A stretch of DNA of 40,000 bases from Undibacterium sp. Ji22W (lineage in GTDB: Bacteria; Pseudomonadota; Gammaproteobacteria; Burkholderiales; Burkholderiaceae_D), in NCBI RefSeq assembly GCF_049340305.1, contig NZ_JBMPOU010000001.1:631511-671510 (forward strand), in the 5' to 3' direction. Numbering within the stretch: the stretch's first letter is position 1; the number at the start of each line of letters is the position of its first letter. Shown here piece after piece: positions 15,146 through 37,167 of the stretch. The notes below the pieces were generated by a model, which made no database searches, was not told the origin of the DNA, and saw only the letters and a program-made list of their open reading frames with translations. Position numbers and translations under genes: made by a program.

Positions 15146-17161
15146 ATGCGTTTTGATTCTACTCCCGAAGAACCTCAAGTAATGAGCGATGATGCTGTGG
15201 CAAATCGCCGATTGATGGGTGGTATTCTGGTATCACTGATCGCACATGCACTAATCTTATCTTTGCAATTTGGTATCCCTGGTCTCGATCTTCCAAGTCT
15301 CGAAGTCCCATGGAAAGAGCGACGTACGCCGGTGCAAACGCTGCAGGTAGAAATTGCCAGTCCAGCCCCAAAAGCGGCGCCGGTGCCACCGACGCCGGCA
15401 GTGACGACGCCCGAGCTGTTTAAATTGCCTACTCCCATTTTACCTGCGCCCATTCCTAAGATGACAGCGCCACCGACCGGTTTGCAAGTGTTAGCTATGC
15501 AATCGAAACCGGAACCAGTCCCGCCTGAGAAGAAACCGGCCAAATCGGTTAAGAGTAAGCCAGTACCACCGCTGCCGATCGAAAAGCGTGTGCCACCGCC
15601 GTCTGAATCACCGACGCGTATCATCGCGCAAGATAAGATCAAGAATGATGATTTTGTTGTGCCCTTAACCAGCGAAGAGGATTTAGAGCGGCACACACAA
15701 GATAAGAAAGAAACGAAGCAAAAGCTGGAAGCTATTCCTGAAGATGCGATTATCGATAAAAATGCCGAAGCAGACCTGATTGCCGAACAAAAACGTCAAG
15801 AAGAGCTGAAACAAAAAAAGATAGCGCAGGAAAAAGTCTTAGCTGAGCAAAAACAGCAAGAAGCAGAGCGCTTGCAACAAATCGCGAAAGCGAATGAAGA
15901 AAAACAAAAGCAGCAAGAGGCTGAACGTTTGCAGCAGATTCAGCAAACCAACGATTTGAAGCGTCAACAGGCTGAACAATTGGCACAACAAAAAATTCTC
16001 GCGCAACAGAAAGCAGTATTCGAGCAGAAACAACGTGAACAAGCGTTAGAAGAAGCCATGCGGGAGGCAAAACGCCAAGAATTATTGACGCAAGAAACCT
16101 TAAAGCAAGAAGAACAAAGTCGTCAGGCGGAGCAGAAACGATTGCGTCAATTGGCGCAAGAACAAGAGCAGCAAAAACAAGAAGCGCAGGCACAAGCACA
16201 ATTGCGTCAGAAATTGGCGGAAGAGCAGGCAGAGAAAAAGCGCGCCTTAGAAATCGCTGAACGTCAGCGCCAAGAAGATTTGGAAGCGAAGCGGGTGGAA
16301 GCTCAGCGTCAGTTGCAAATTGCAGAGCAAAAAGCGGCGGAACAAAAACAGTTAGAACAAAGACTGTTGGAGCAAAAAATCGCTGAACAAAAAATAGCGG
16401 AACAACGCGCATTTGAACAAAAAATCGCACAACAAAAGTTAGCTGAACAAAAGCTGGCAGAGCAAAAGTTAGCTGAACAAAAATTAGCTGAACAAAAAGC
16501 GCAGGAACAAAAATTAGCTGAGCAAAAAGCCCTGGCCGATGCTGCACGTGCTAATGCGGAACGCGAAGCCGCGATAGCCGCATCGCGCCAAACTGGCGCA
16601 TCCAATCGTAGTGATGTCAATGGTGATGGTAAGGGCGGTACTGGTAGTTCAAGCAATGCCAATAGTAGCGGTGCACTCACACAGAACTTGGGCAAGGGCG
16701 ATCTCGCCAGTCGTTTGCGCGAGCAGGCGCGCAATACTGATTTATTGAAATCGACACCGTCGAATAGTAAATTAGCCGACGAAAAGTCCGCGCGCAGACG
16801 TAGTTTCCTTGGTGCCTATGATAAAGAAGTTCCTTTGCGCATGTATGTCGATAGCTTGAAGCACAAACTCGAACGCAATGGCAATTTAATTTACGAACGT
16901 CGTACTTTAAGCGAGGTTGAACATAATGTGCAGATCAATATGGTGGTGCGCAGCGATGGCAGCATTGAAGAAGTGACGATCATGCGCAGTAGTGGCTCGC
17001 GTGCGATTGATGAGAAAGCCCGCAATATTATTATGGCCAATTCGCCATATTCAGCGTTCCCGCCCGCCTTGGCATTGAAATACGATGTGATCGAGGTGCA
17101 GCGAGTCTGGAGTTTCGGTGATAAATTGCGCATTCTAGATAACTTGCCATCGGCATTTTAG
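15146..17161 (+). CDS. TonB-family protein: TM anchor, Pro-rich spacer, about 290-aa E/Q/K/A coiled coil, and a TonB C-terminal domain
   Basis: TM segment GGILVSLIAHALILSL and a Pro-rich region (PAPKAAPVPPTPAVTTP...). The C-terminus is of TonB_C type (VQINMVVRSDGSIEEVTIMRSSGSRAIDEKARNIIMANSPYSAFPP). The start is uncertain: 15146 or the ATG at 15182. Confidence 0.7.
   Translation: MRFDSTPEEPQVMSDDAVANRRLMGGILVSLIAHALILSLQFGIPGLDLPSLEVPWKERRTPVQTLQVEIASPAPKAAPVPPTPAVTTPELFKLPTPILPAPIPKMTAPPTGLQVLAMQSKPEPVPPEKKPAKSVKSKPVPPLPIEKRVPPPSESPTRIIAQDKIKNDDFVVPLTSEEDLERHTQDKKETKQKLEAIPEDAIIDKNAEADLIAEQKRQEELKQKKIAQEKVLAEQKQQEAERLQQIAKANEEKQKQQEAERLQQIQQTNDLKRQQAEQLAQQKILAQQKAVFEQKQREQALEEAMREAKRQELLTQETLKQEEQSRQAEQKRLRQLAQEQEQQKQEAQAQAQLRQKLAEEQAEKKRALEIAERQRQEDLEAKRVEAQRQLQIAEQKAAEQKQLEQRLLEQKIAEQKIAEQRAFEQKIAQQKLAEQKLAEQKLAEQKLAEQKAQEQKLAEQKALADAARANAEREAAIAASRQTGASNRSDVNGDGKGGTGSSSNANSSGALTQNLGKGDLASRLREQARNTDLLKSTPSNSKLADEKSARRRSFLGAYDKEVPLRMYVDSLKHKLERNGNLIYERRTLSEVEHNVQINMVVRSDGSIEEVTIMRSSGSRAIDEKARNIIMANSPYSAFPPALALKYDVIEVQRVWSFGDKLRILDNLPSAF
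16318..16530 (+). repeat. 15-bp periodic coding repeat giving about 14 pentads of (L/I)AEQK
   Basis: Units such as TTAGCTGAACAAAAA / CTGGCAGAGCAAAAG recur in tandem. The protein reads IAEQKIAEQRAFEQKIAQQKLAEQKLAEQKLAEQKLAEQKAQEQKLAEQK. Confidence 0.8.
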
Positions 17162-21165: not shown

Positions 21166-22863
<1,698 letters not shown>

Positions 22864-22867
22864 TCAA

Positions 22868-23158
22868 TTATTTTTGAACGATAGCGAAGACGTCTTCTTC
22901 ACGCATAACCAACACTTCATTGCCGTCAACTTTGACAGCTTGACCAGAATATTTACCGAACAACACGCGGTCGCCAACTTTAACTTCTAAAGCGCGTACT
23001 GTGCCGTCTTCCAATACTTTGCCGTTACCAACAGCCAGTACTTCACCTTGATCTGGTTTCTCAGCTGCTGCGTCAGGCAAAACGATACCGGATGCTGTTT
23101 TTGTTTCTTGATCCAAACGTTTAACGATAATGCGATCGTGCAGGGGACGAAGATTCAT
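22868..23158 (-). CDS. groES: Co-chaperonin GroES
   Basis: [29 protein letters not shown], 96 aa, with AGGAG 6 nt upstream of the ATG at 23158. The ORF-track start at 23275 is an artefactual extension. Confidence 0.97.
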
Positions 23159-23339: not shown

Positions 23340-23366
23340 TTAGCACTCTCTTTCGCTGAGTGCTAA
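23340..23366. promoter_or_regulatory. CIRCE operator (HrcA binding site)
   Basis: TTAGCACTC-tctttcgct-GAGTGCTAA is a perfect match to the CIRCE consensus TTAGCACTC-N9-GAGTGCTAA. Confidence 0.9.
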
Positions 23367-23367
23367 T

Positions 23368-23395
23368 TATATGGGCGGGTTGGGGCTTTTTCAAG
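23368..23395 (-). promoter_or_regulatory. Sigma-32 (RpoH) heat-shock promoter of groESL
   Basis: The minus strand reads CTTGAAAaagccccaacccgCCCATATA, a -35 CTTGAAA, 13-nt spacer and CCCATnT-type -10. It lies immediately upstream of CIRCE. Confidence 0.6.
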
Positions 23396-23525
23396 GAAGA
23401 AAGTTGAAAATAGCGGTTTTATTTTAAAAATCAGGGGGTTAGCACGGATTATTGCATTGTCTGGGATGTGAAATAGGGAGATTCTTGCACTTGTTTTGTG
23501 ATGAGAATTTACATAAAAGACGGCG

Positions 23526-24530
23526 TTAGAGGCTATCAAGCGGACTGCGTACACCACCAGCAATCTTTAAAATATGCGTATAAATCATGGTGGTGCTCAC
23601 ATCATTGTGTCCAAGCAAATCTTGAACCGTACGAATATCGCAACCACTTTGCAATAAGTGGGTGGCAAAGCTGTGCCTCAGGGTATGCGGTGAGGCAGGT
23701 TTAAAACAGGCGTTTTTCTTTAATGCGAGCTGAAACGCACGACGAAATGTTTGCGGATAAAGGTGATGCCGACGGACTATACGAGAACGAGGATCGGTAG
23801 AGACAGACTGTTGAGGAAAGACCCAAAACCAAGCCCAACTCTGATCAGCACGCGGATATTTTTTTGCAAGTGCAAATGGCATGTCGACACCGGCAAGCTC
23901 ATTTCGTCTATCCATTTCCCAGATCGTATGGCAACGCGCCAATTGTTCTTTTAAGGCGGGAACTAAGCTCTGAGGTTCTTTTAAGGCGGGAACTAAGCTC
24001 TGAGGAAGCATCACAACGCGATCTTTGAAACCCTTACCATCACGAATCAAGATCGCACCATGATCAAATTCAATATCTTTTACTCTCAATCGGGCAGCTT
24101 CCATGATGCGCATACCGGTTCCATACAAGAGTCTTGCAAATAGGCCAAAGGTCGTATTGCTGGAGTCGAGCACTTGAATGGTTTGTTGAACCTCTAATTT
24201 GGTAAGCACAACTGGTAAATGCTTTTTTTCCTTGGGGCGACCAATGTCGTTTAACCAAGGCAATTCGATTTTAAGCACTTCTTTATACAAATAGAGAATT
24301 GCACTTAAGGCTTGACGGTGCGTCGAAGGCGAAACCTTTCGCTCGACAACCAGCATAGACAAAAATGCTTCAACCTCCGGCCCTCCCATGTCCTTTGGAT
24401 GTCGAAGACCCGACCAACGAATAAAAAAACGGATCCAGTAAACATAATTTTTCTCTGTCGCAAGACTGTAATGTTTATAACGTATGCTCTCGCGCACTTG
24501 ATCCAACAAACGAGGTACTTTCGCTTCCAT
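23526..24530 (-). CDS. intI: Integron integrase IntI (tyrosine recombinase)
   Basis: Collinear with recalled IntI1: [99 protein letters not shown]. It also carries the IntI-specific insert [39 protein letters not shown]. It is divergent from the cassette array. Confidence 0.93.
23946..24006. repeat. Perfect 30-bp tandem duplication inside intI ([10 protein letters not shown] x2)
   Basis: TTCTTTTAAGGCGGGAACTAAGCTCTGAGG occurs at 23947-23976 and again at 23977-24006. The duplication is in frame. Confidence 0.95.
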
Positions 24531-24548
24531 CTAGGTTCCCTTGTTATA

Positions 24549-24564
24549 CTGTATATTTATACAG
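24549..24564. promoter_or_regulatory. LexA box (SOS box) overlapping the putative intI promoter
   Basis: CTGTATATTTATACAG fits CTGT-N8-ACAG perfectly, 19 nt upstream of the intI ATG. On the minus strand, TTTACT-N18-TATAAA places the -10 inside the box. Confidence 0.8.
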
Positions 24565-24574
24565 TATAACAAAA

Positions 24575-24645
24575 AAGAAGCAGTAAACATAAGCCTTTTG
24601 AGAAAGTTGAAACAGTGTTGCTCAATTTGTACGTTTGTGTTAACG
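24575..24645 (+). other. attI region with its core site GTTAACG (crossover G|TT at 24639/24640)
   Basis: It lies between intI and the first cassette ORF. TTTGT repeats are followed by GTTAAC. The extent is approximate. Confidence 0.45.
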
Positions 24646-24679
24646 TCGGTTTTTTCACTTTAAAACAAGTTAAATCTCA

Positions 24680-25117
24680 ATGAGTATGCCCAAGCCCAAA
24701 CGTATCGAAGAGATCACGGTATCCGATTTGAAGTTACATCGTTGGTGCTACTTCCACGACGATGAGGCTGGGTTCGATGCGTTTGAATATGTTATTCCAG
24801 ATACACATGAGCAGTTTGACGAGAACGTAATCGAGCTTGAACTAGCTGTCTTTAAATTTGATGGTGACAGAGAGTATTTCGGGATGTATGACGGCTCAAA
24901 GTCTTATAGCATTTTTCTAAATAATGAGTGGTTCTATTTTTGGCATGGAGTTCGCAAGCCGACAGAGTCGGAAATAGCCCATCTCAAAGATACGCTAATG
25001 GCGTCCGATTTAACGTTTCCGATTTCAGCACGAGCCTATTGGTCTGATCGGACCGAGTTATTTCGCGGACTTCGCTATTATGACGAACGGGGTGTCGAGG
25101 TTGAACTTGAGATTTAA
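24680..25117 (+). CDS. Cassette 1 ORF, unknown function (145 aa, acidic, aromatic-rich, cytoplasmic)
   Basis: Sole long ORF in cassette 24640-25198. Its stop codon lies inside the attC R'' box. No family recognised. Confidence 0.65.
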   Translation: MSMPKPKRIEEITVSDLKLHRWCYFHDDEAGFDAFEYVIPDTHEQFDENVIELELAVFKFDGDREYFGMYDGSKSYSIFLNNEWFYFWHGVRKPTESEIAHLKDTLMASDLTFPISARAYWSDRTELFRGLRYYDERGVEVELEI

Positions 25118-25204
25118 CTTGGCGGTCGGCGAGGAATCGCCGCGACCGACTTCTATACTATTTTATTTATTGGTGGCGGCGATCCCGGCACCTCAACGTT
25201 AAGC
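25112..25204 (+). repeat. attC 1 (93 bp; R'' ATTTAAC, R' GTTAAGC)
   Basis: The arms GGAATCGCCGCGACC and GGTGGCGGCGATCC are complementary. The 3' end CACCTCAACGTTAAGC is shared with other attC sites in the array. Confidence 0.75.
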
Positions 25205-25214
25205 ATCAAATTAA

Positions 25215-25475
25215 ATGAGACCTTTAGAGCGAATAGACGAAATATCAAATCTCATTAAAGAGATTTGGAATGGACTTCCAAGCATGAGGTATATGCAGTT
25301 AATCTACGTTTTGCAATCGAGTTTTTCAGAGAAGAATAAAAATATTGGAAGAATTGAGGCACGTGAGGATGGAACTAACTCCAGAATTGGATTCGATTTA
25401 TTTCATATTGAAGACGACGAGTTAAAACTTTTCCTCGAAAGCTTTCTATTTGATCTTAAAACAAACAATGCTTAA
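25215..25475 (+). CDS. Cassette 2 ORF, unknown function (86 aa)
   Basis: Sole ORF in cassette 25199-25553. Its stop codon lies inside R''. Confidence 0.6.
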   Translation: MRPLERIDEISNLIKEIWNGLPSMRYMQLIYVLQSSFSEKNKNIGRIEAREDGTNSRIGFDLFHIEDDELKLFLESFLFDLKTNNA

Positions 25476-25559
25476 CAGGTCAAGCGATGGAGAATCGCCA
25501 ATGACTATCTCACTGAAATTTTTGACCGTCGTGGCGATCTCGTCATTTCGGCGTTAAAC
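25470..25559 (+). repeat. attC 2 (90 bp; R'' GCTTAAC, R' GTTAAAC)
   Basis: R'' is the exact complement of this cassette's 5' boundary GTTAAGC. The arms GAGAATCGCCA and TGGCGATCTC pair. The 3' end GTCATTTCGGCGTTAAAC is identical to that of attC 3. Confidence 0.85.
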
Positions 25560-25570
25560 ATCAACAGCAA

Positions 25571-26068
25571 ATGCGCACAATCTCACTATTAATTGCAGTT
25601 CTTTTGGGCGTTCTAACTTTTTCAGTAACGTGCTTTGCCGCGCAAGCGCTGACTCCCCAAAAGGCGCTTGTTGCGAAGCTATATAAAAATTATGCATTCG
25701 AAGCTATACGCGATGAATCCGACTTAGATGGTGAATTTTTAGATAGACCCCGCAACGTATTACTTTCTTACTTGACGCCAAGTCTGGCGAAATTGGTTTT
25801 AAAAGATAGAAAATGCGCGGCTGACACACACGAAATTTGCAACTTGGACTTTATGCCACTTTGGGATAGCCAGGATCCGACTGGTGCCATTGTCCGGATT
25901 TTGCCAACGAGTAAAAACGATGAGGTTAATGTCCAATTGAGGTACGGGTCAGAAACACGAACACTCACTTACTTTCTTACACTCACTAATTTAGGTTGGC
26001 GAATTCGGGACATCGCTTATGAAAACGGACGAAAATCTCTGGTTGATATCCTCGGGCGAGCAAAATGA
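25571..26068 (+). CDS. Cassette 3 ORF, exported protein of unknown function (165 aa)
   Basis: Signal peptide MRTISLLIAVLLGVLTFSVTCFAAQA. The motif CNLDFMPLWDSQDP reminds me of DUF3828-type periplasmic proteins, but this is memory only and unverified. Confidence 0.65.
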   Translation: MRTISLLIAVLLGVLTFSVTCFAAQALTPQKALVAKLYKNYAFEAIRDESDLDGEFLDRPRNVLLSYLTPSLAKLVLKDRKCAADTHEICNLDFMPLWDSQDPTGAIVRILPTSKNDEVNVQLRYGSETRTLTYFLTLTNLGWRIRDIAYENGRKSLVDILGRAK

Positions 26069-26096
26069 TCGCTGCTTACAATTCTCAGGTATTGAT

Positions 26097-26153
26097 GTTT
26101 AACTCAACAATCGACTGGGACGCGCTGGCGAGCCGGTCATTTCGGCGTTAAAC
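26097..26153 (+). repeat. attC 3 (57 bp; R'' GTTTAAC, R' GTTAAAC)
   Basis: R'' and R' are perfectly complementary. The arms CGACTGG and CCGGTCA pair with bulges. Confidence 0.85.
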
Positions 26154-26167
26154 CTCAAGTTCCACTT

Positions 26168-26551
26168 ATGACATTTCTCCTCAAGCGAATTTTAGCTTTC
26201 CTCCCTGGAGGCATCCTAGTAGCTCTATCGACTATAGCAATTGAGTATGAAGATAAAGAACGCTTGGTTTTGGACTCAGACGGTTGGCTCATCGAGTTTA
26301 ACAAAGCATCGAAGTTAGTGTCTCGATCAGGGACGCTAGCTGCTTCGTTCGGGTCGATTCTGTCTGTTGATGTCGAACATTCCGTCAATGGAAAACGCTT
26401 CGAGTGGTGGGTTCTCAACCTGACACTCCAAGGAGGGAAGAAAATTTTTGTTGGTCGCTCAACTGATAGTGCTGAGGTGTCGATCGCAGCTGCGCATATC
26501 GCAAATGCAGTCAGCAAACGGGTTAGAGCTATTGAAAAGATAGGATTTTGA
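26168..26551 (+). CDS. Cassette 4 ORF, unknown function (127 aa, N-terminal hydrophobic anchor)
   Basis: The + strand ORF has the cassette orientation and fits inside cassette 26148-26654. The hydrophobic segment is LAFLPGGILVALSTIAI. Confidence 0.6.
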   Translation: MTFLLKRILAFLPGGILVALSTIAIEYEDKERLVLDSDGWLIEFNKASKLVSRSGTLAASFGSILSVDVEHSVNGKRFEWWVLNLTLQGGKKIFVGRSTDSAEVSIAAAHIANAVSKRVRAIEKIGF

Positions 26552-26567
26552 TTGGAAGAATATTGAG

Positions 26568-26660
26568 GTTTAACATTACGGTCGTAGGGGAATCGCCAGT
26601 GAGGATTTCTCGCTTTATTAATTTTCTGGTGGCGGTGATCTCGACACCTCTGCATTAGGC
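26568..26660 (+). repeat. attC 4 (93 bp; R'' GTTTAAC, defective R' ATTAGGC)
   Basis: It aligns along its length with attC 1 (GGAATCGCC ... CTGGTGGCGGTGATCTCGACACCT). At the position of the invariant R' G it reads A. Confidence 0.7.
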
Positions 26661-26683
26661 TTTCATACAACCACGGGCTCCCA

Positions 26684-27373
26684 ATGAGACACAGCGAACG
26701 ACATAGAACTCACAGAACTGGCTGGCTACGGGCCGCCGTGTTGGGTGCCAATGATGGGATTGTCTCTACTGCGAGCCTGGTCCTTGGGATAGCGGCTACA
26801 GGCGCCAGCACCAAGATCATTCTCGTTACAGGTGTTGCAAGCCTCGTTGCTGGAGCCATGTCAATGGCAGCAGGCGAATATGTTTCGGTCAGCTCACAGG
26901 CCGACACTGAAGGCGCAGATCTGGATCGAGAAAAAGCTGAACTTGTGGAGAACCCAGCCCAAGAACACGCAGAACTTATGGCGATCTACGTTAAGCGCGG
27001 ACTGGATGAGGCATTGGCATCGAGCGTCGCAACTAAGTTAATGGCGCACGATGCGCTTGCCGCGCATGCACGAGATGAGCTAGGTATCTCAGACACCTTG
27101 GCCGCCAAACCAATCCAGGCAGCGCTCGCCTCTGCGGGCACTTTTGCCGCTGGCGCACTTCTACCGCTGCTAATGGTCTTCGTTTTTCCCGCAGCAGCGC
27201 TTATGTGGGGTCTTGCCGGAAGCTCACTCCTTTTCCTTGCTCTGCTGGGTCTGATTGCCGCACGCGCAGGAGGCTCCCCAATGCTCGTGTCTGTGACGCG
27301 CGTAACATTCTGGGGAGCATTAGCAATGGGACTTACCGCTGGAGTTGGCGCCATCTTTGGAGTGGCAGCATGA
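26684..27373 (+). CDS. Cassette 5 ORF: VIT1/CCC1-family (DUF125) iron/manganese transporter
   Basis: HSERHRTHRTGWLRAAVLGANDGIVSTASLVLG is the family's hallmark N-terminus. It has the cytoplasmic E-rich helix and C-terminal TM bundle. The segment is visibly more GC-rich than neighbouring cassettes. Confidence 0.8.
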   Translation: MRHSERHRTHRTGWLRAAVLGANDGIVSTASLVLGIAATGASTKIILVTGVASLVAGAMSMAAGEYVSVSSQADTEGADLDREKAELVENPAQEHAELMAIYVKRGLDEALASSVATKLMAHDALAAHARDELGISDTLAAKPIQAALASAGTFAAGALLPLLMVFVFPAAALMWGLAGSSLLFLALLGLIAARAGGSPMLVSVTRVTFWGALAMGLTAGVGAIFGVAA

Positions 27374-27434
27374 AGCATTAAACGCGACACCTTTGAGGTA
27401 TATATGTTCTCAACGCCCTCTAGTACGCGCACCA

Positions 27435-27501
27435 GCCTCACCGTAAGTTCGAGTGCGGCCGCAATGCTTCGCATCGCGGCTCCTCAACCTTGGCGTTAAA
27501 C
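27435..27501 (+). repeat. attC 5 (67 bp; R'' GCCTCAC, R' GTTAAAC)
   Basis: R'' complements this cassette's 5' boundary (G)TTAGGC at 6 of 7 positions. There is a central stem GCCGCAATGC/GCATCGCGGC, and the arms AAGTTCGAG and CTCAACCTT pair. Confidence 0.65.
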
Positions 27502-27568
27502 AGCTAAGAATTTTCAGTACCTCACAAATAATGAATGAAATGCGTAGACTTCAAAAGATGAAAAACAA

Positions 27569-28315
27569 ATGAATAAAGTTTTTAGCTTAGGTTTTTTTAT
27601 TGCATTGTTTGTTATTGCAAATGCTTCCGCACTCACCAATGATCAAGAATGTGCTGAGGATATATTTGATATTTCAGCGCGCTACTTAAATCTCAAGAAT
27701 TTTACATATAAATCTAAAAATGGTGTTGTTATCGCGGCCGCATGCAAGGCCTCTCCGACTAATCCCAATTTGATCTTATCCGTCTTTGCATACGATAGTG
27801 CTATCAAAGATGAGAAGAATTTACTGGTAGCTATCATTGATGAAAAAAGAAACCAGATAGTTAGTAGCTACAAGAGTGTGATGAATCAGGACTTCTCGAC
27901 TCAGTTTAGTGAAAACAGCTTCAAGCTTGATACTGGGAGATACCAACTTTCCGATAAAGTGAGAGCATTTGGCGTCAGGTTTGATAATGCAGCAATATCT
28001 AGTTGTGGTGAGGAAGGTGGTCAGAATGATAATCTCACTTTGTTTGTGCAGGAAGGAAAAAAATTGCGTGCTGTTTTTGATATGTACATGTATTGGTATC
28101 GCTTAATTGAAGGAATTCGCTGCAATCCAAATTCTGAGGCAATTATGGAGAATGCCTACCTCACAGGGGCAGTGCAAAGGAACAGTACCAATGGTTTTGC
28201 TGACCTATTGCTTACTGCAAAAATTGATAGAAATCGTGTTGAACATCATTTGCTTCGCTACGATGGAAAGAGTTACCAAACAGGTTCCCAAAAACCTTGG
28301 TGGTTAGGGTATTGA
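27569..28315 (+). CDS. Cassette 6 ORF, secreted protein of unknown function (248 aa)
   Basis: Signal peptide MNKVFSLGFFIALFVIANASA, AT-rich coding and several Cys residues. No family recognised. Confidence 0.65.
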   Translation: MNKVFSLGFFIALFVIANASALTNDQECAEDIFDISARYLNLKNFTYKSKNGVVIAAACKASPTNPNLILSVFAYDSAIKDEKNLLVAIIDEKRNQIVSSYKSVMNQDFSTQFSENSFKLDTGRYQLSDKVRAFGVRFDNAAISSCGEEGGQNDNLTLFVQEGKKLRAVFDMYMYWYRLIEGIRCNPNSEAIMENAYLTGAVQRNSTNGFADLLLTAKIDRNRVEHHLLRYDGKSYQTGSQKPWWLGY

Positions 28316-28337
28316 GCCATTTAAGAAAGTAGAAGGA

Positions 28338-28391
28338 TGTTTAACTTTCCAATCAACTCGGACGCTGCGCACCTGCTATTTTAACGTTAGA
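28338..28391 (+). repeat. attC 6 (54 bp; R'' GTTTAAC, R' GTTAGAG)
   Basis: R'' exactly complements the cassette's 5' boundary GTTAAAC. The 3' end GCGCACCTGCTATTTTAACGTTAGAG resembles that of attC 8. Internal pairing is weak. Confidence 0.6.
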
Positions 28392-28406
28392 GGTTTAATT
28401 AAGCAC

Positions 28407-28961
28407 ATGGCAAAAATTGAAGTAGGAAAAGGAAGAAGTAAGATTGAGCAAACTAATCATGGTTTGCGAATTACTATCCCGTCTAAAAAGAATTTCTTTT
28501 TAATCGCCTTCATGGGCTTTTGGCTAATGGGTTGGGCATTTGGTGAGGTGTCAGTTTTAAAAGAATTATTAAATCCAAAAGATGGAGCGCCGCAATTTTT
28601 TCTTATTGCGTGGCTTGGTGGCTGGACTGTCGGTGGAGCCTTCGCCATATATGCTTGGCTTTGGAATGTTATGGGGAAAGAAATAGTAGACATAACTTCG
28701 TCAGAGCTAAGTCACATCAAGATTGTTGCTGGGTTTAGTAGAAGTAGTGAATATGCAGTATCTTCAATATCAAAATTAAGGCTGCAACCACAAAACACGT
28801 CGATGTTTGGCTCTAGAAATGGAATGGAGTTTTGGGGTATCACAGGAGGCACTATTGCCTTTGACTACGGACAAAGTACCCATAAATTCGGGGCGCAACT
28901 TGATGAAGCGGAAGCTAGCCATGTTATTGAAGCCATTAAAAACAGGTTCACAAACCTCTAG
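28407..28961 (+). CDS. Cassette 7 ORF, membrane protein of unknown function (184 aa, 2 TM)
   Basis: TM segments FFLIAFMGFWLMGWAFG and FFLIAWLGGWTVGGAFAIYAWLW. The stop codon TAG lies inside R''. Confidence 0.65.
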   Translation: MAKIEVGKGRSKIEQTNHGLRITIPSKKNFFLIAFMGFWLMGWAFGEVSVLKELLNPKDGAPQFFLIAWLGGWTVGGAFAIYAWLWNVMGKEIVDITSSELSHIKIVAGFSRSSEYAVSSISKLRLQPQNTSMFGSRNGMEFWGITGGTIAFDYGQSTHKFGAQLDEAEASHVIEAIKNRFTNL

Positions 28962-29012
28962 CAAGTCGCTCAAGGCCGCTTCGTTGGACAGCCCCTTAGC
29001 TCGGCGTGAGAG
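28956..29012 (+). repeat. attC 7, degenerate (57 bp; R'' CTCTAGC, R' GTGAGAG)
   Basis: R'' complements the cassette's 5' boundary GTTAGAG at 6 of 7 positions. The arms AAGTCGCTCAAGG and CCTTAGCTCGGC partly pair. An alternative or orphan R'-like end TCTTTAACGTTACAC lies at 29034-29048. Confidence 0.45.
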
Positions 29013-29063
29013 TACTCCGTAGTATCCTATTGTTTCTTTAACGTTACACACGAGGAGCTAAAA

Positions 29064-29468
29064 ATGCATGCCTTAAAATTGATAATGATTGTCTCTATTT
29101 TCGTTGGAAGCAGTAACTTAGTTGCTGCAGAAAATAGCGTAGAAAAAGAATTGAGAAAAAATAAGAGTTTGCGTTGTGTTGCTGTTGCAATGGAAGGTAA
29201 AAATTTGATGAAATCAAACGTGATGAGTGCCGATGCGAACTTCTCCCAACAAAATGATACTGTTTTACAAAATCATAAAGAACAACTAAGAACTAATCGC
29301 CCCCAAGGCACTGAAGACGAAATGTCAAACGCGTTATATAGCCTTGCAAAAAATGAGCATAAAGCAATGAATGTTTACATCTCCGAGAATATTAAAGATG
29401 CAAGCGAAGTTGAAAAATTCGCTAAGAAGTTTATATTAAACCGATACAAAACTATCGGATGTCTCTAA
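29064..29468 (+). CDS. Cassette 8 ORF, secreted protein of unknown function (134 aa)
   Basis: A strong RBS (GAGGAG) lies 6 nt upstream. Signal peptide MHALKLIMIVSIFVGSSNLVAAEN. Confidence 0.7.
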   Translation: MHALKLIMIVSIFVGSSNLVAAENSVEKELRKNKSLRCVAVAMEGKNLMKSNVMSADANFSQQNDTVLQNHKEQLRTNRPQGTEDEMSNALYSLAKNEHKAMNVYISENIKDASEVEKFAKKFILNRYKTIGCL

Positions 29469-29507
29469 AGAAAATATTTTCGATGTTTGAAGAAGCAGTA
29501 AATGCGC

Positions 29508-29596
29508 CCTAACTTGACATTCGTTACGGACGCGCGAATTATCTACGCGCTCTATTTTGAAAACTCGTGTGCGCACCTTTCAACTCAACGTTATAC
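29508..29596 (+). repeat. attC 8 (89 bp; R'' CCCTAAC, R' GTTATAC)
   Basis: The 3' end GCGCACCTTTCAACTCAACGTTATAC is of the array's family type. Both R boxes deviate by one position from consensus. Confidence 0.6.
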
Positions 29597-29614
29597 ACAT
29601 ACGGAGAAGATGAT

Positions 29615-29860
29615 TTGGAGACTTACAATTTCCAAGCAAGATGGAAAGAAGAATTGGTTTGTTCAACTCCTGCAAAGTCATTCGTATTGGAATTCCCAAT
29701 AGGTAATCCGACCGTTTACTTTCCAAATGAATGTAGATGGAAGGAAGTGGGGCCGTCATGGGCGACCGAGGACTGGCCTGCTCTGCATGAGCAGCTGCGA
29801 GCCTGGTGTAAGAAAAATAATGTAGAACTTATGATCGATGAGACCGCGAATGTCTATTGA
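29615..29860 (+). CDS. Cassette 9 ORF, unknown function (about 81 aa from TTG; the ORF track gives a GTG at 29567)
   Basis: The frame is open from 29567, but that start lies inside attC 8, which belongs to the previous cassette. The first in-cassette start is TTG at 29615, 8 nt after GGAG. There is no in-frame ATG until near the 3' end. Confidence 0.5.
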   Translation: METYNFQARWKEELVCSTPAKSFVLEFPIGNPTVYFPNECRWKEVGPSWATEDWPALHEQLRAWCKKNNVELMIDETANVY

Positions 29861-29869
29861 CCAGTCGAT

Positions 29870-29954
29870 GCATAACATGACAATCGACCGGACTGGCCCT
29901 GAAGCGGCTCAGTGTTTTATTAATTGGTGGGCGGCCATCCACTCACCGTTGCGT
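29870..29954 (+). repeat. attC 9 (85 bp; R'' GCATAAC, R' GTTGCGT)
   Basis: R'' complements the cassette's 5' boundary GTTATAC at 6 of 7 positions. The 3' arm ATTAATTGGTGGGCGGCCATCCACTCACC aligns with attC 1 and attC 4. Confidence 0.65.
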
Positions 29955-29963
29955 GATGCAAAC

Positions 29964-30314
29964 ATGACTAAATTCATACTCGCCCTTGTCTTTGTAGTTT
30001 GCACCTCATCTGTGTTTGCATGTGAGTCGCCCGATGCCGAATGGTCCATGATCCTTCAGAGCAAAAAACACACTGTGAAAGGGCCCTACACAATAGCTGA
30101 ATTAGAATCAAACAACTTGATCGAAATTCGTGAAACAAAAGAAGTGCTGCCATTTGGGTATATTAATAAATATTGGGTTCAGTTAAAAGCTAGATACTTG
30201 CCTGGTGATCGTTTTTATTTCGTCCATTTTCAAGATGGACGTTTTTTCGTTGAGCGGCATGTACTAGTTAGGAATGATTGTGTGATTGGTGCTTTAATGG
30301 GCGCGATCTCCTAG
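29964..30314 (+). CDS. Cassette 10 ORF, exported protein or lipoprotein of unknown function (116 aa)
   Basis: The ATG at 29964 gives MTKFILALVFVVCTSSVFACESPD, a signal peptide with a lipobox-like FAC. The ORF-track start at 29838 would read through attC 9 and the previous cassette. Confidence 0.65.
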   Translation: MTKFILALVFVVCTSSVFACESPDAEWSMILQSKKHTVKGPYTIAELESNNLIEIRETKEVLPFGYINKYWVQLKARYLPGDRFYFVHFQDGRFFVERHVLVRNDCVIGALMGAIS

Positions 30315-30320
30315 TGCTTT

Positions 30321-30375
30321 ATCTAACATTCGACGATGACGCATGAATGCGTCCCTTCCTAAATTTCAGTGATGG
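30321..30375 (+). repeat. Possible decayed attC 10 (R'' ATCTAAC; no canonical R'; best candidate GTGATGG)
   Basis: A consensus R'' lies 7 nt after the stop, and there is an internal hairpin GACGCA-tgaa-TGCGTC (30338-30353). No GTTRRRY follows. A second R''-like box ATTTAAC lies at 30388-30394. Confidence 0.3.
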
Positions 30376-30418
30376 GCGTGCTGGCCTATTTAACATGACA
30401 TGACATGGCATTTCTTTT

Positions 30419-30796
30419 ATGATTGATTGGCAAATTATCGTCGAGGGAAAATTTCCTTCAGGTTGGGATGAACATAAAGATGGTTGTTGGTTCCCTGACT
30501 TCGGCACCCAAAAATATTTGCTTCCTTACTTTGACGTTGGTGAGCAACCAATTGACGAATATGGCGCGACGCGCTTTGATGTCGATACGATGAAACGCCT
30601 TCGTACCCATCTCAAATGGCAGCGTGATTATTTCGAAGCAAAAGGGGATACATGGGTAATAACGGAGACCGGCGACGGACAATGTGAATCCTATACGCTT
30701 CAACGAGACGTCGTCGTTGGGGTCATTGATAGAACGATTTCAATGGTTGGGATCGCTATTCATTTGAATGGTCAACTTGTGTTTCGGGGTGACTAA
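30419..30796 (+). CDS. Cassette 11 (or second gene of cassette 10) ORF, unknown function (125 aa, cytoplasmic)
   Basis: Only long ORF in this segment, in cassette orientation. The stop codon is embedded in the R''-like ACTAAAC (30792-30798). Confidence 0.6.
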   Translation: MIDWQIIVEGKFPSGWDEHKDGCWFPDFGTQKYLLPYFDVGEQPIDEYGATRFDVDTMKRLRTHLKWQRDYFEAKGDTWVITETGDGQCESYTLQRDVVVGVIDRTISMVGIAIHLNGQLVFRGD

Positions 30797-31126
30797 ACGA
30801 AGATTGATGCCTTCTTGGTACACATCGTATTACCTATGGCAATCGTGACTCCGTTCGGTCAATCCATATCACATTTGGTTTTATGCCCCGCTTGATGGGT
30901 TTACTTCGCACCCGGCAGTAGCTTTCCTGTTGACGCGGGCGGCGCATGTCATTTGCTAGTACCGGTTTCTTAATCAAGCATAAGCTCAACGCGGACTTCC
31001 AAACGATGTGTCAATTCGCTAGTGATTAACAAACATACCTGGTTCAAAGTCGATTATGCTCGCCGGGGCAGCAGCTACAATGACAACTCCTCGCACCTTA
31101 AATCTATCTCTATGGAGAAGCAAGTT

Positions 31127-31474
31127 ATGTACGGTCTTATCGGAAAAATGAAGTGCACACCTGGGCAGCAAGATTACTTGATATCCATTTTGCTAGAAGG
31201 TGTGTCGGGAATGCCGGGTTGTCTTAGTTATGTTGTCGCTAAAGATCCCACTGACGCAGATGCGATATGGATTACAGAAGCATGGACAAGCCAGCAGGCG
31301 CATAAGGATTCACTTTCGCTGCCTTCGGTACAAGCGGCGATCGCCAAGGCACGGCCCATTATTGCCGGATTTGGCGAACGTTTTGAAACGCAACCTGTGG
31401 GTGGCCATGGTCTGGTGGCTGCGGGTGGTGTTGCGAATGGGATTGCAAATGGGATTGCAAATGGGATTTCTTAA
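31127..31474 (+). CDS. Antibiotic-biosynthesis-monooxygenase (ABM/YgiN-like) domain protein
   Basis: From the ATG at 31127 (GGAGAAG 6 nt upstream), MYGLIGKMKCTPGQQDYLISILL ... WITEAWTSQQAHKDSL is typical of ABM domains. The ORF-track start at 31022 is probably an extension. Confidence 0.7.
   Translation: MYGLIGKMKCTPGQQDYLISILLEGVSGMPGCLSYVVAKDPTDADAIWITEAWTSQQAHKDSLSLPSVQAAIAKARPIIAGFGERFETQPVGGHGLVAAGGVANGIANGIANGIS
31430..31468 (+). repeat. 12-bp tandem repeat x3 (ATTGCAAATGGG) encoding the (GIAN)3 C-terminal tail
   Basis: GTTGCGAATGGG ATTGCAAATGGG ATTGCAAATGGG ATT. Confidence 0.85.

Positions 31475-37090: not shown

Positions 37091-37167
<77 letters not shown>

Follow-up and report, generated by a model that had tools for sequence, protein, structure and literature searches.

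A probable complete and chromosomally fixed integron next to the groESL operon of Undibacterium

What kind of element lies directly upstream of the groES-groEL operon in the chromosome of the freshwater bacterium Undibacterium sp. Ji22W (Betaproteobacteria, Oxalobacteraceae)? The locus was analysed within a stretch of 40,000 nucleotides (NCBI RefSeq assembly GCF_049340305.1, contig NZ_JBMPOU010000001.1, positions 631,511 to 671,510 of the forward strand), which is referred to here as the window. An initial annotation had proposed a complete chromosomal integron that lacks transposition and resistance genes and falls outside classes 1–3, and this proposal was borne out in every test that we ran. 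Our analysis indicates that the locus is very probably a complete, chromosomally fixed integron, in which a gene for an integron integrase (intI), an attI site and an array of gene cassettes with attC sites are present together. As such, it is an ordinary further example of a well-known kind of element.

The integrase gene and a repeat within it are located as follows.
23526–24530, minus strand: intI, integron integrase gene (334 aa), on the same strand as groESL and directly upstream of groES
23945–24005, minus strand: perfect 30-bp tandem duplication within intI (TRF: period 30, 2.0 copies, 100% match)

The product of intI passes both integron-specific NCBIfam models, TIGR02249 (424 bits, cutoff 265) and NF011946 (440 bits, cutoff 435), and fails the models for XerC (144, cutoff 335) and XerD (136, cutoff 330). 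Residues 9–333 align unbroken with VchIntIA of Vibrio cholerae (PDB 2a3v; 6e-74), and this alignment is continuous across residues 199–241 and takes in the additional domain. Structures of Xer recombinases align in two blocks only and skip residues ~185–253, corresponding to the IntI-specific insert. The VchIntIA residues K209, W219, P232, H240 and H241, which hold the flipped-out attC bases, have K, W, P and HH as their counterparts in the window protein. The catalytic residues R141, K166, H282, R285, H308 and Y317 do not vary across an alignment of eight sequences that includes five relatives and IntI1. The earlier view of this protein as an integron integrase with the catalytic contexts and the extra domain is therefore upheld by the two profiles, the VchIntIA alignment and the invariant RKHRHY set, and the suggested check on integrase models, done here with the integron-specific NCBIfam models, did not return an ordinary XerC/D-like recombinase. 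In sequence identity, the protein is closest to three proteins of the Undibacterium clade (91, 87 and 76%), followed by a protein from Curvibacter (65%), the closest non-Undibacterium protein in our sample, by IntI1 (60–62%) and by gammaproteobacterial examples (about 51–54%).

The tandem duplication in intI is in-frame and doubles ten residues right after the hairpin bearing the catalytic K166. The ten-residue insert is missing from all seven of the other aligned IntI proteins, IntI1 among them, and an opposite gap is present in VchIntIA. The duplication may represent a very recent event, either inactivating or neutral, or an assembly artefact. The enzyme carrying it may thus no longer be active.

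Two further elements are situated between the integrase gene and the first cassette.
24547–24566, no strand assigned: LexA (SOS) box TACTGTATATTTATACAGTA, 17 nt upstream of the intI ATG (0 mismatches, 0.01 expected by chance)
24632–24675, plus strand: attI, GTTAACG...CACTTTAAAACAA-GTTAAAT, crossover after G24669

The LexA box is conserved in every Undibacterium relative, and it can be aligned with that of the intI1 promoter. The attI-like site ends in the heptamer GTTAAAT (24669–24675), and it is here that homology between genomes stops. In comparison with four relatives (U. flavidum, U. macrobrachii, Oxalobacteraceae UBA7693 and U. rugosum; loci L001, L002, L003 and L027), homology extends from intI across ~140 bp of non-coding DNA and ends at 24671/24672, within GTTAAAT. 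The alignment of this region (A4) contains the block CACTTTAAAACAAGTT, common to the relatives and conserved up to AAGTT, and likewise ...TTTAAAACAAGTT is conserved and then followed by unrelated sequence; what lies beyond is unrelated in every genome. A homology break inside GTTAAAT would be the signature expected of an attI crossover between G and TT. The attI core TTTAAAACAAGTTA also aligns with the attI1 core CCTAAAACAAAGTTA (CCCTAAAACAAAGTTAGAC as aligned in the block comparison), and the GTTAACG located upstream in attI aligns with GTTACGC of attI1. In U. macrobrachii (L002), a second LexA-box-like palindrome, AACTGTATGTTTATACAGCT, is found just upstream of the first cassette ORF, ~100 bp past attI, which suggests a cassette that may carry its own SOS-controlled promoter.

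Divergent from intI, eleven co-oriented open reading frames (ORFs) on the plus strand occupy the region from 24680 to 30796, in agreement with the initial annotation. The array consists of nine attC-bounded cassettes and two distal ORFs without recognisable attC. The attC sites were located with a covariance model, R1, built from 16 attC-like sites of five other genomes (L001–L004 and L027) and holding no window sequence. Its structure, with 7 bp in the R stem and 5 bp in the L stem, was set by hand from per-sequence constrained folds; 68.7% of the cells are paired in the training sites, against 31–40% with the partner slid by 1–3 columns. The whole 40-kb window was searched on both strands with filters off. 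R1 gives eight matches at E<=0.003 and one weak match (27435–27501, 10.4 bits, E=2). All nine lie on the plus strand, every one of them in a gap that follows a cassette ORF.

Outside the array, the best R1 score in the window is 10.1 bits (E=2.4) and nothing falls below E=2 on either strand. The reverse strand of a true attC scores 7.7 against 40.7 bits. A distance of 582 bp separates the first attC from the intI start, and every attC is on the strand opposite to intI. When R1 was run over 510 kb of other loci, gammaproteobacterial loci included, matches were confined to the array side of intI, also in loci outside the training set (L007, L009, L010 and L012), and no match was obtained in five non-integron control loci (about 100 kb). 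The check on an attC covariance model that accompanied the initial annotation thus yielded, with this independently trained model, significant sites in the array only. An Rfam scan of the window gave no attC match, and RNAalifold predicted zero pairs on a MAFFT alignment of the relatives' sites. Two hand-made aligners of hairpin arms were dropped: they matched arms without gaps, which fails in the presence of the unpaired spacer and the bulges, and with them only one or two sites stood out.

The cassettes and their attC sites, with the R1 score of each site, are arranged as follows.
24670–25198, plus strand: cassette 1, ORF 24680–25117 (145 aa, no family)
25112–25204, plus strand: attC1, ATTTAAC...GTTAAGC (46.3 bits, E=4e-9)
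25199–25553, plus strand: cassette 2, ORF 25215–25475 (86 aa)
25470–25559, plus strand: attC2, GCTTAAC...GTTAAAC (45.1 bits, E=8e-9)
25554–26147, plus strand: cassette 3, ORF 25571–26068 (165 aa, signal-peptide-like N-terminus)
26097–26153, plus strand: attC3, 57 nt, GTTTAAC...GTTAAAC (40.7 bits, E=9e-8), 7-bp R stem
26148–26654, plus strand: cassette 4, ORF 26168–26551 (127 aa)
26568–26660, plus strand: attC4, R' mutated to ATTAGGC (39.7 bits, E=2e-7)
26655–27495, plus strand: cassette 5, ORF 26684–27373 (229 aa), VIT1-family membrane protein (Pfam VIT1, 4.6e-65)
27435–27501, plus strand: attC5, R'' GCCTCAC and R' GTTAAAC (10.4 bits, E=2), weakest in the array
27496–28386, plus strand: cassette 6, ORF 27569–28315 (248 aa), PA3715 family (NCBIfam NF052451, 4.9e-31)
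28339–28392, plus strand: attC6, GTTTAAC...GTTAGAG (29.9 bits, E=4e-5), weak stem
28387–29006, plus strand: cassette 7, ORF 28407–28961 (184 aa, membrane-like)
28956–29012, plus strand: attC7, both boxes mutated, CTCTAGC...GTGAGAG (22 bits, E=0.003)
29007–29590, plus strand: cassette 8, ORF 29064–29468 (134 aa, signal peptide)
29507–29596, plus strand: attC8, CCCTAAC...GTTATAC (30.4 bits, E=3e-5)
29591–29953, plus strand: cassette 9, ORF ending at 29860; its listed GTG start (29567) falls inside attC8
29870–29959, plus strand: attC9, R' mutated to GTGATGC (45.1 bits, E=8e-9)
29954–31111, plus strand: distal variable segment, ORFs 29964–30314 and 30419–30796, then a 315-bp non-coding stretch

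It had been proposed that an imperfect palindrome bounded by RYYYAAC and GTTRRRY follows each ORF. A palindrome is present behind nine of the eleven ORFs, those at 29964–30314 and 30419–30796 being without one. As to the boundaries, both boxes are fully on consensus in attC1, attC2 and attC3 only, and attC4, 5, 6, 7 and 9 are off it. Since such heptamers are common by chance, with 40 (RYYYAAC) and 48 (GTTRRRY) occurrences per strand in the window, the boxes alone are no evidence for attC. A further feature of these sites is that in eight of nine attCs the R'' flank is fitted better by the start of its own cassette than by the downstream R', as would be expected if the following cassette takes the 3' part of R' along with it. 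For cassette 1, the start (24666–24680) and its own R'' (25107–25121) are complementary at 15 of 15 positions, and in attC5 the R'' GCCT fits the TTAGGC at the start of its own cassette. In the folds of attC3, attC5 and attC7, five unpaired nucleotides separate the R stem from the L stem, and the latter has one bulged base, on the R''-L'' arm. In attC1 a long stem is formed with three bulged bases on the R''-L'' arm and one on the other arm, and attC6 barely pairs (constrained dG +1.0). The minimum-energy folds of attC2, attC8 and attC9 differ from the attC layout. The repeat families noticed at the outset are also present: GGAATCGCC...GGTGGCGGYGATC occurs in attC1 and attC4 and in variant form in attC2, and GTCATTTCGGCGTTAAAC forms the end of both attC2 and attC3.

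Only two of the cassette proteins belong to a family, namely VIT1 and PA3715, and a PADLOC scan of ten cassette proteins found no defence family. Proteins of the VIT1 family are iron/manganese transporter-like. The VIT1 cassette has a GC content of 54% against 38–42% in the adjoining cassettes and is thus clearly foreign relative to its neighbours. For cassette 9, the TTG at 29615, which lies behind a GGAG, is more likely to be the start than the GTG at 29567. The two distal ORFs, of which the former (29964–30314) encodes a lipoprotein-like protein of 116 aa and the latter (30419–30796) a protein of 125 aa, are both absent from U. flavidum and match no Pfam, NCBIfam or PADLOC family. No R1 match at E<=10 is present in the gaps between them. 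The gap before the last array ORF, where an attC is to be expected, contains 3.8 copies of an ACATG pentamer (30393–30411), close to the start of that ORF. An R'' box may have left its trace in the ATCTAAC at 30321. Over its distal third, the array is not canonical but decaying.

Comparison of the region upstream of groES with other genomes, as had been recommended, reveals that the platform is present in three relatives whereas the cassettes are fully turned over. The order intI-groES-groEL is common to U. flavidum, U. macrobrachii and Oxalobacteraceae UBA7693 (GroEL 94–99.8% identical) and therefore predates the divergence of the species, the position being inherited within the clade. In U. 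rugosum and in the other 37 intI loci, intI is not next to groESL, so that this arrangement is restricted to the clade among 41 intI loci. Synteny with U. flavidum is seen in the flank beyond the array, where genes for the ABM monooxygenase, the BPSS1187-family hydrolase and the aldo-keto reductase are located. The platform has thus occupied its place upstream of the chaperonin operon from a time before the split of several Undibacterium species. An empty groES-upstream site was not found via six homologues of the flanking hydrolase, because gene order is lost beyond the close clade.

No cassette is common to the window and U. flavidum, U. macrobrachii or UBA7693. Even in comparison with U. 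flavidum, whose GroEL is 99.8% identical, only fragments of attC match, attC9 being 79% identical to two U. flavidum attCs. The cassette content has thus been wholly replaced between relatives while the locus was kept. In U. flavidum LX15W (L027, 10335–10336), intI has an internal deletion of 644 bp, equivalent to 23551–24195 of the window, which leaves residues 1–112 and a few codons at the end of the gene. U. flavidum still has attI, the LexA box and ~7 kb of array with no fewer than eight attC matches; its locus is an integron in the course of turning into an integrase-less array. A 7-kb metagenomic contig (L049) carries a 78% homologue of the flanking hydrolase together with the aldo-keto reductase. 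Upstream of this hydrolase, two strong attC matches (427–516 and 1005–1127) are present in the same orientation as in the window array, and a LysR gene and two unknown ORFs come next; genomes therefore differ at the distal end of the array.

For the working of the element, we infer SOS control, bottom-strand recombination and cassette expression from a promoter near attI on the basis of established integron biology. DNA damage would lift LexA repression and expression of intI would be switched on by the SOS response, as expected from the LexA box in the intI promoter region. IntI would recombine the folded bottom strand of an attC with double-stranded attI between G and TT of GTTAAAT (24669), and incoming promoterless cassettes would join next to attI. 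Excision would remove cassettes between two attC sites. From their intact crossover boxes, the three attI-proximal cassettes are the ones with the best chance of still being mobile. With the distal crossover boxes mutated (ATT, GTG), the neighbouring cassettes would probably be locked into larger immobile blocks, and the last two ORFs appear to have lost any attC.

Several of our observations weigh against a complete integron in working order, and one rival reading is that of an integron by descent that is now a fossil. In a fossil integron, the ten-residue duplication would have inactivated IntI and left the array frozen and eroding toward an integrase-less (CALIN-like) state, as in U. flavidum. 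The perfect in-frame duplication, unique to the window genome and located just after the catalytic-lysine hairpin, may indeed have inactivated the enzyme, and the 644-bp loss from the U. flavidum intI shows that the system is decaying in the clade. In the array itself, four of the nine attCs (attC4, 5, 7 and 9) have a mutated crossover triplet or R'' and two ORFs are without attC; much of the array may therefore be immobile. Furthermore, a plus-strand sigma-70 consensus (at least 9 of 12) is absent between intI and cassette 1, where only weak candidates were seen by eye. Against a fossil stand the intact reading frame with all of its catalytic and attC-binding residues and the 100% identity of the two duplication copies, which makes the event very recent. 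The LexA box and attI are also intact, the attCs of the three cassettes nearest to attI have canonical form and the 15/15 pairing of cassette 1 with its own start is preserved. A fossil is thus a possible but distinctly less probable description of the locus.

The remaining doubts concern the detection of attC, and here the alternative to be weighed is that an ordinary XerC/D-like recombinase happens to lie near genes spaced by REP-like intergenic palindromes. R1 is a home-made proxy whose training sites were picked by eye, and some of these are homologous to the window attCs. The palindromes are thermodynamically unexceptional, their bottom-strand hairpin energies being no better than those of shuffles (z -2.0 to +1.0), and the box heptamers are common by chance. 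Such a non-integron reading is nevertheless refuted by the integrase, which is far below the Xer cutoffs, passes the integron profiles and has the IntI-specific insert, by R1 matches that are strand-specific and confined to the array, and by an attI boundary that coincides with the point at which related genomes diverge; we give it next to no probability. A mobile integron, carried on a transposon, an integrative and conjugative element (ICE) or a genomic island and recently inserted beside the groESL promoter, would fit the 60–62% identity to IntI1 and the GC content of the array (~0.40–0.45), which is below that of the flanks (~0.48–0.50). But no transposase, Tn402-type tni genes, inverted repeats or 3' conserved segment (3'-CS) were found at the integron, the same intI-groES-groEL junction occurs in three other genomes, the far flank is syntenic with U. 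flavidum and none of the 37 other intI loci adjoins groESL, making recent mobile insertion highly improbable. A chromosomally fixed, complete integron is therefore the reading that we prefer.

On the groES side, this integron is bordered by the following features.
21166–22818, minus strand: groEL (context), 550-aa ORF
22868–23158, minus strand: groES (context), Pfam Cpn10, 1.6e-33
23340–23394, minus strand: groESL control region, promoter TTGAAA-17-TATAAT (23394..23366), then CIRCE (23340–23366)

The groEL product is 99.8% identical to GroEL of both U. flavidum and UBA7693. In a promoter scan the groESL promoter, a strong one, matches the consensus at 11 of 12 positions, and a sigma-32-like CTTGAAA-N13-CCCATAT, read by eye, overlaps it. 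The CIRCE element, TTAGCACTC-N9-GAGTGCTAA, has 0 mismatches, with 0 such sites expected by chance. The distance from the intI stop codon to the -35 hexamer of groESL is 131 nt. The initial annotation had the integron inserted against this promoter: the adjacency is real, whereas an insertion is not supported, the locus being inherited in the clade and no empty site having been found. Its remark that the position was not known as a described integron locus agrees with our literature search, in which no description of a native integron beside groESL was found. Neither an intrinsic terminator nor a stable hairpin is present between the intI stop and the groESL promoter (23395–23525; RNA fold z = -0.3), so that read-through from SOS-induced intI is possible. 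One may speculate that the conserved head-to-tail order of intI, groES and groEL is functional and not accidental, with cassette shuffling coupled to the heat-shock regulon. In such a case, SOS-induced intI transcripts could read through the sigma-32/CIRCE promoter and raise the chaperonin level during DNA damage, or the HrcA/CIRCE complex could form a roadblock to intI transcripts. We regard a coupling of this kind as very unlikely.

The flanks of the integron in the window are ordinary chromosomal, housekeeping genes on either side. One flank encodes a TonB-like protein, an epimerase, a DTW-domain protein and an OPT transporter, and the other the ABM monooxygenase, the BPSS1187-family hydrolase and the aldo-keto reductase. 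The hydrolase has 100% identity to a protein of Undibacterium sp. Ji22W, and the loci nearest to the window all come from Undibacterium or Oxalobacteraceae. Pfam and NCBIfam scans found no transposase among the window proteins, and family scans found no resistance gene among the window and cassette proteins. The variable segment spans 24670 to at most 31112, slightly past the end point given earlier (30798), and synteny with U. flavidum picks up again at 31113.

A few side observations were made in these flanks. The sole Rfam match in the window is a tRNA at 37091–37164, which is unrelated to the integron. The 671-aa protein with a TonB C-terminal domain (15146–17161) has a strongly A-rich, low-complexity middle on the coding strand, with an AT skew of up to +0.49 at 15500–16500; this middle is its one poorly conserved part in comparison with U. 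flavidum. At the 3' end of the ABM monooxygenase gene, a 12-bp tandem repeat (31431–31468, 3.2 copies) encodes (ANGI)n, and homology with U. flavidum stops at 31410, just short of this repeat.

The element is a complete integron by the definition used with IntegronFinder, which asks for intI together with one attC or more (Cury et al. 2016, PMC4889954). As ~10% of beta-proteobacterial genomes carry an integron according to the same study, an integron in Undibacterium is expected biology. Sedentary integrons were defined there by >19 attC sites and by presence in 100% of the genomes of a species. The array described here has nine sites; one genome of this species was examined, and the locus is occupied in three other species-level genomes. 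The conserved locus nevertheless argues for an inheritance that would be vertical. The features of mobile integrons of classes 1–5 are not seen either, given an identity of 60–62% to IntI1, the lack of transposition genes and the housekeeping flanks.

Our literature search found no paper linking Undibacterium with an integron of its own. The present analysis adds an environmental, chromosomal integron from a genus for which no such element seems to have been reported, and a comparative series at one conserved locus, in which an intact intI, a freshly duplicated intI and an internally deleted intI are accompanied by complete cassette turnover. This series could serve as a small natural model of how an integron platform decays while arrays persist. 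Otherwise the element leaves the knowledge of integrons unchanged: it carries no resistance genes or recognised defence genes and would be detected by routine IntegronFinder annotation.

Among known systems, a groEL-intI1 fusion has been reported from the In104 region of SGI1 in Salmonella (PMC3285670), with intI1 truncated to 441 bp on a segment that carries ISCR3, floR and tet(G). In both cases, groEL sequence adjoins the 3' side of a gene for an integron integrase, but the fusion in SGI1 arose by rearrangement within a clinical element and is not a native intI-groES-groEL order; we set it apart by description and claim no relationship. The idea that clinical groEL-intI1 fusions are a trace of a native intI-groEL locus was dropped, the SGI1 fusion being a truncated 5' conserved segment (5'-CS) for which no link is shown. 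The groEL fragments on the enterobacterial plasmids that we examined adjoin rmtB and IS26, not intI.

The class 1 platform, consisting of IntI1, attI1 and the LexA-controlled PintI promoter, is comparable in its integrase (60–62% identity), attI core, upstream GTTAACG and LexA box, all of which align. The Undibacterium integron differs from it in being without Tn402 tni genes, qacEdelta1/sul1, resistance cassettes and a Pc-like consensus promoter. Integron classes show little internal diversity, and an IntI only 60–62% identical to IntI1 is therefore not class 1. The earlier statement that the element is unlike clinical integrons of classes 1–3 thus stands as far as its placement outside those classes is concerned, whereas its IntI is not remote from them.

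A close resemblance in organization is seen to the chromosomal integrons of soil and freshwater betaproteobacteria. There too, intI diverges from co-oriented promoterless cassettes of mostly unknown function, resistance genes and a transposition module are lacking and the attCs form a few related families; the Undibacterium array is distinguished by its small size (nine attC) and its location directly upstream of groESL. Compared with the superintegron of Vibrio cholerae and its VCR attC sites, the array is small (nine sites against >100), its attCs are less homogeneous and PADLOC detected no toxin-antitoxin or defence cassettes in it. The two nevertheless share an integrase that aligns over its full length with the extrahelical-base residues conserved, and both are platforms fixed in the chromosome, that of Undibacterium probably by vertical inheritance, with rapid cassette turnover.

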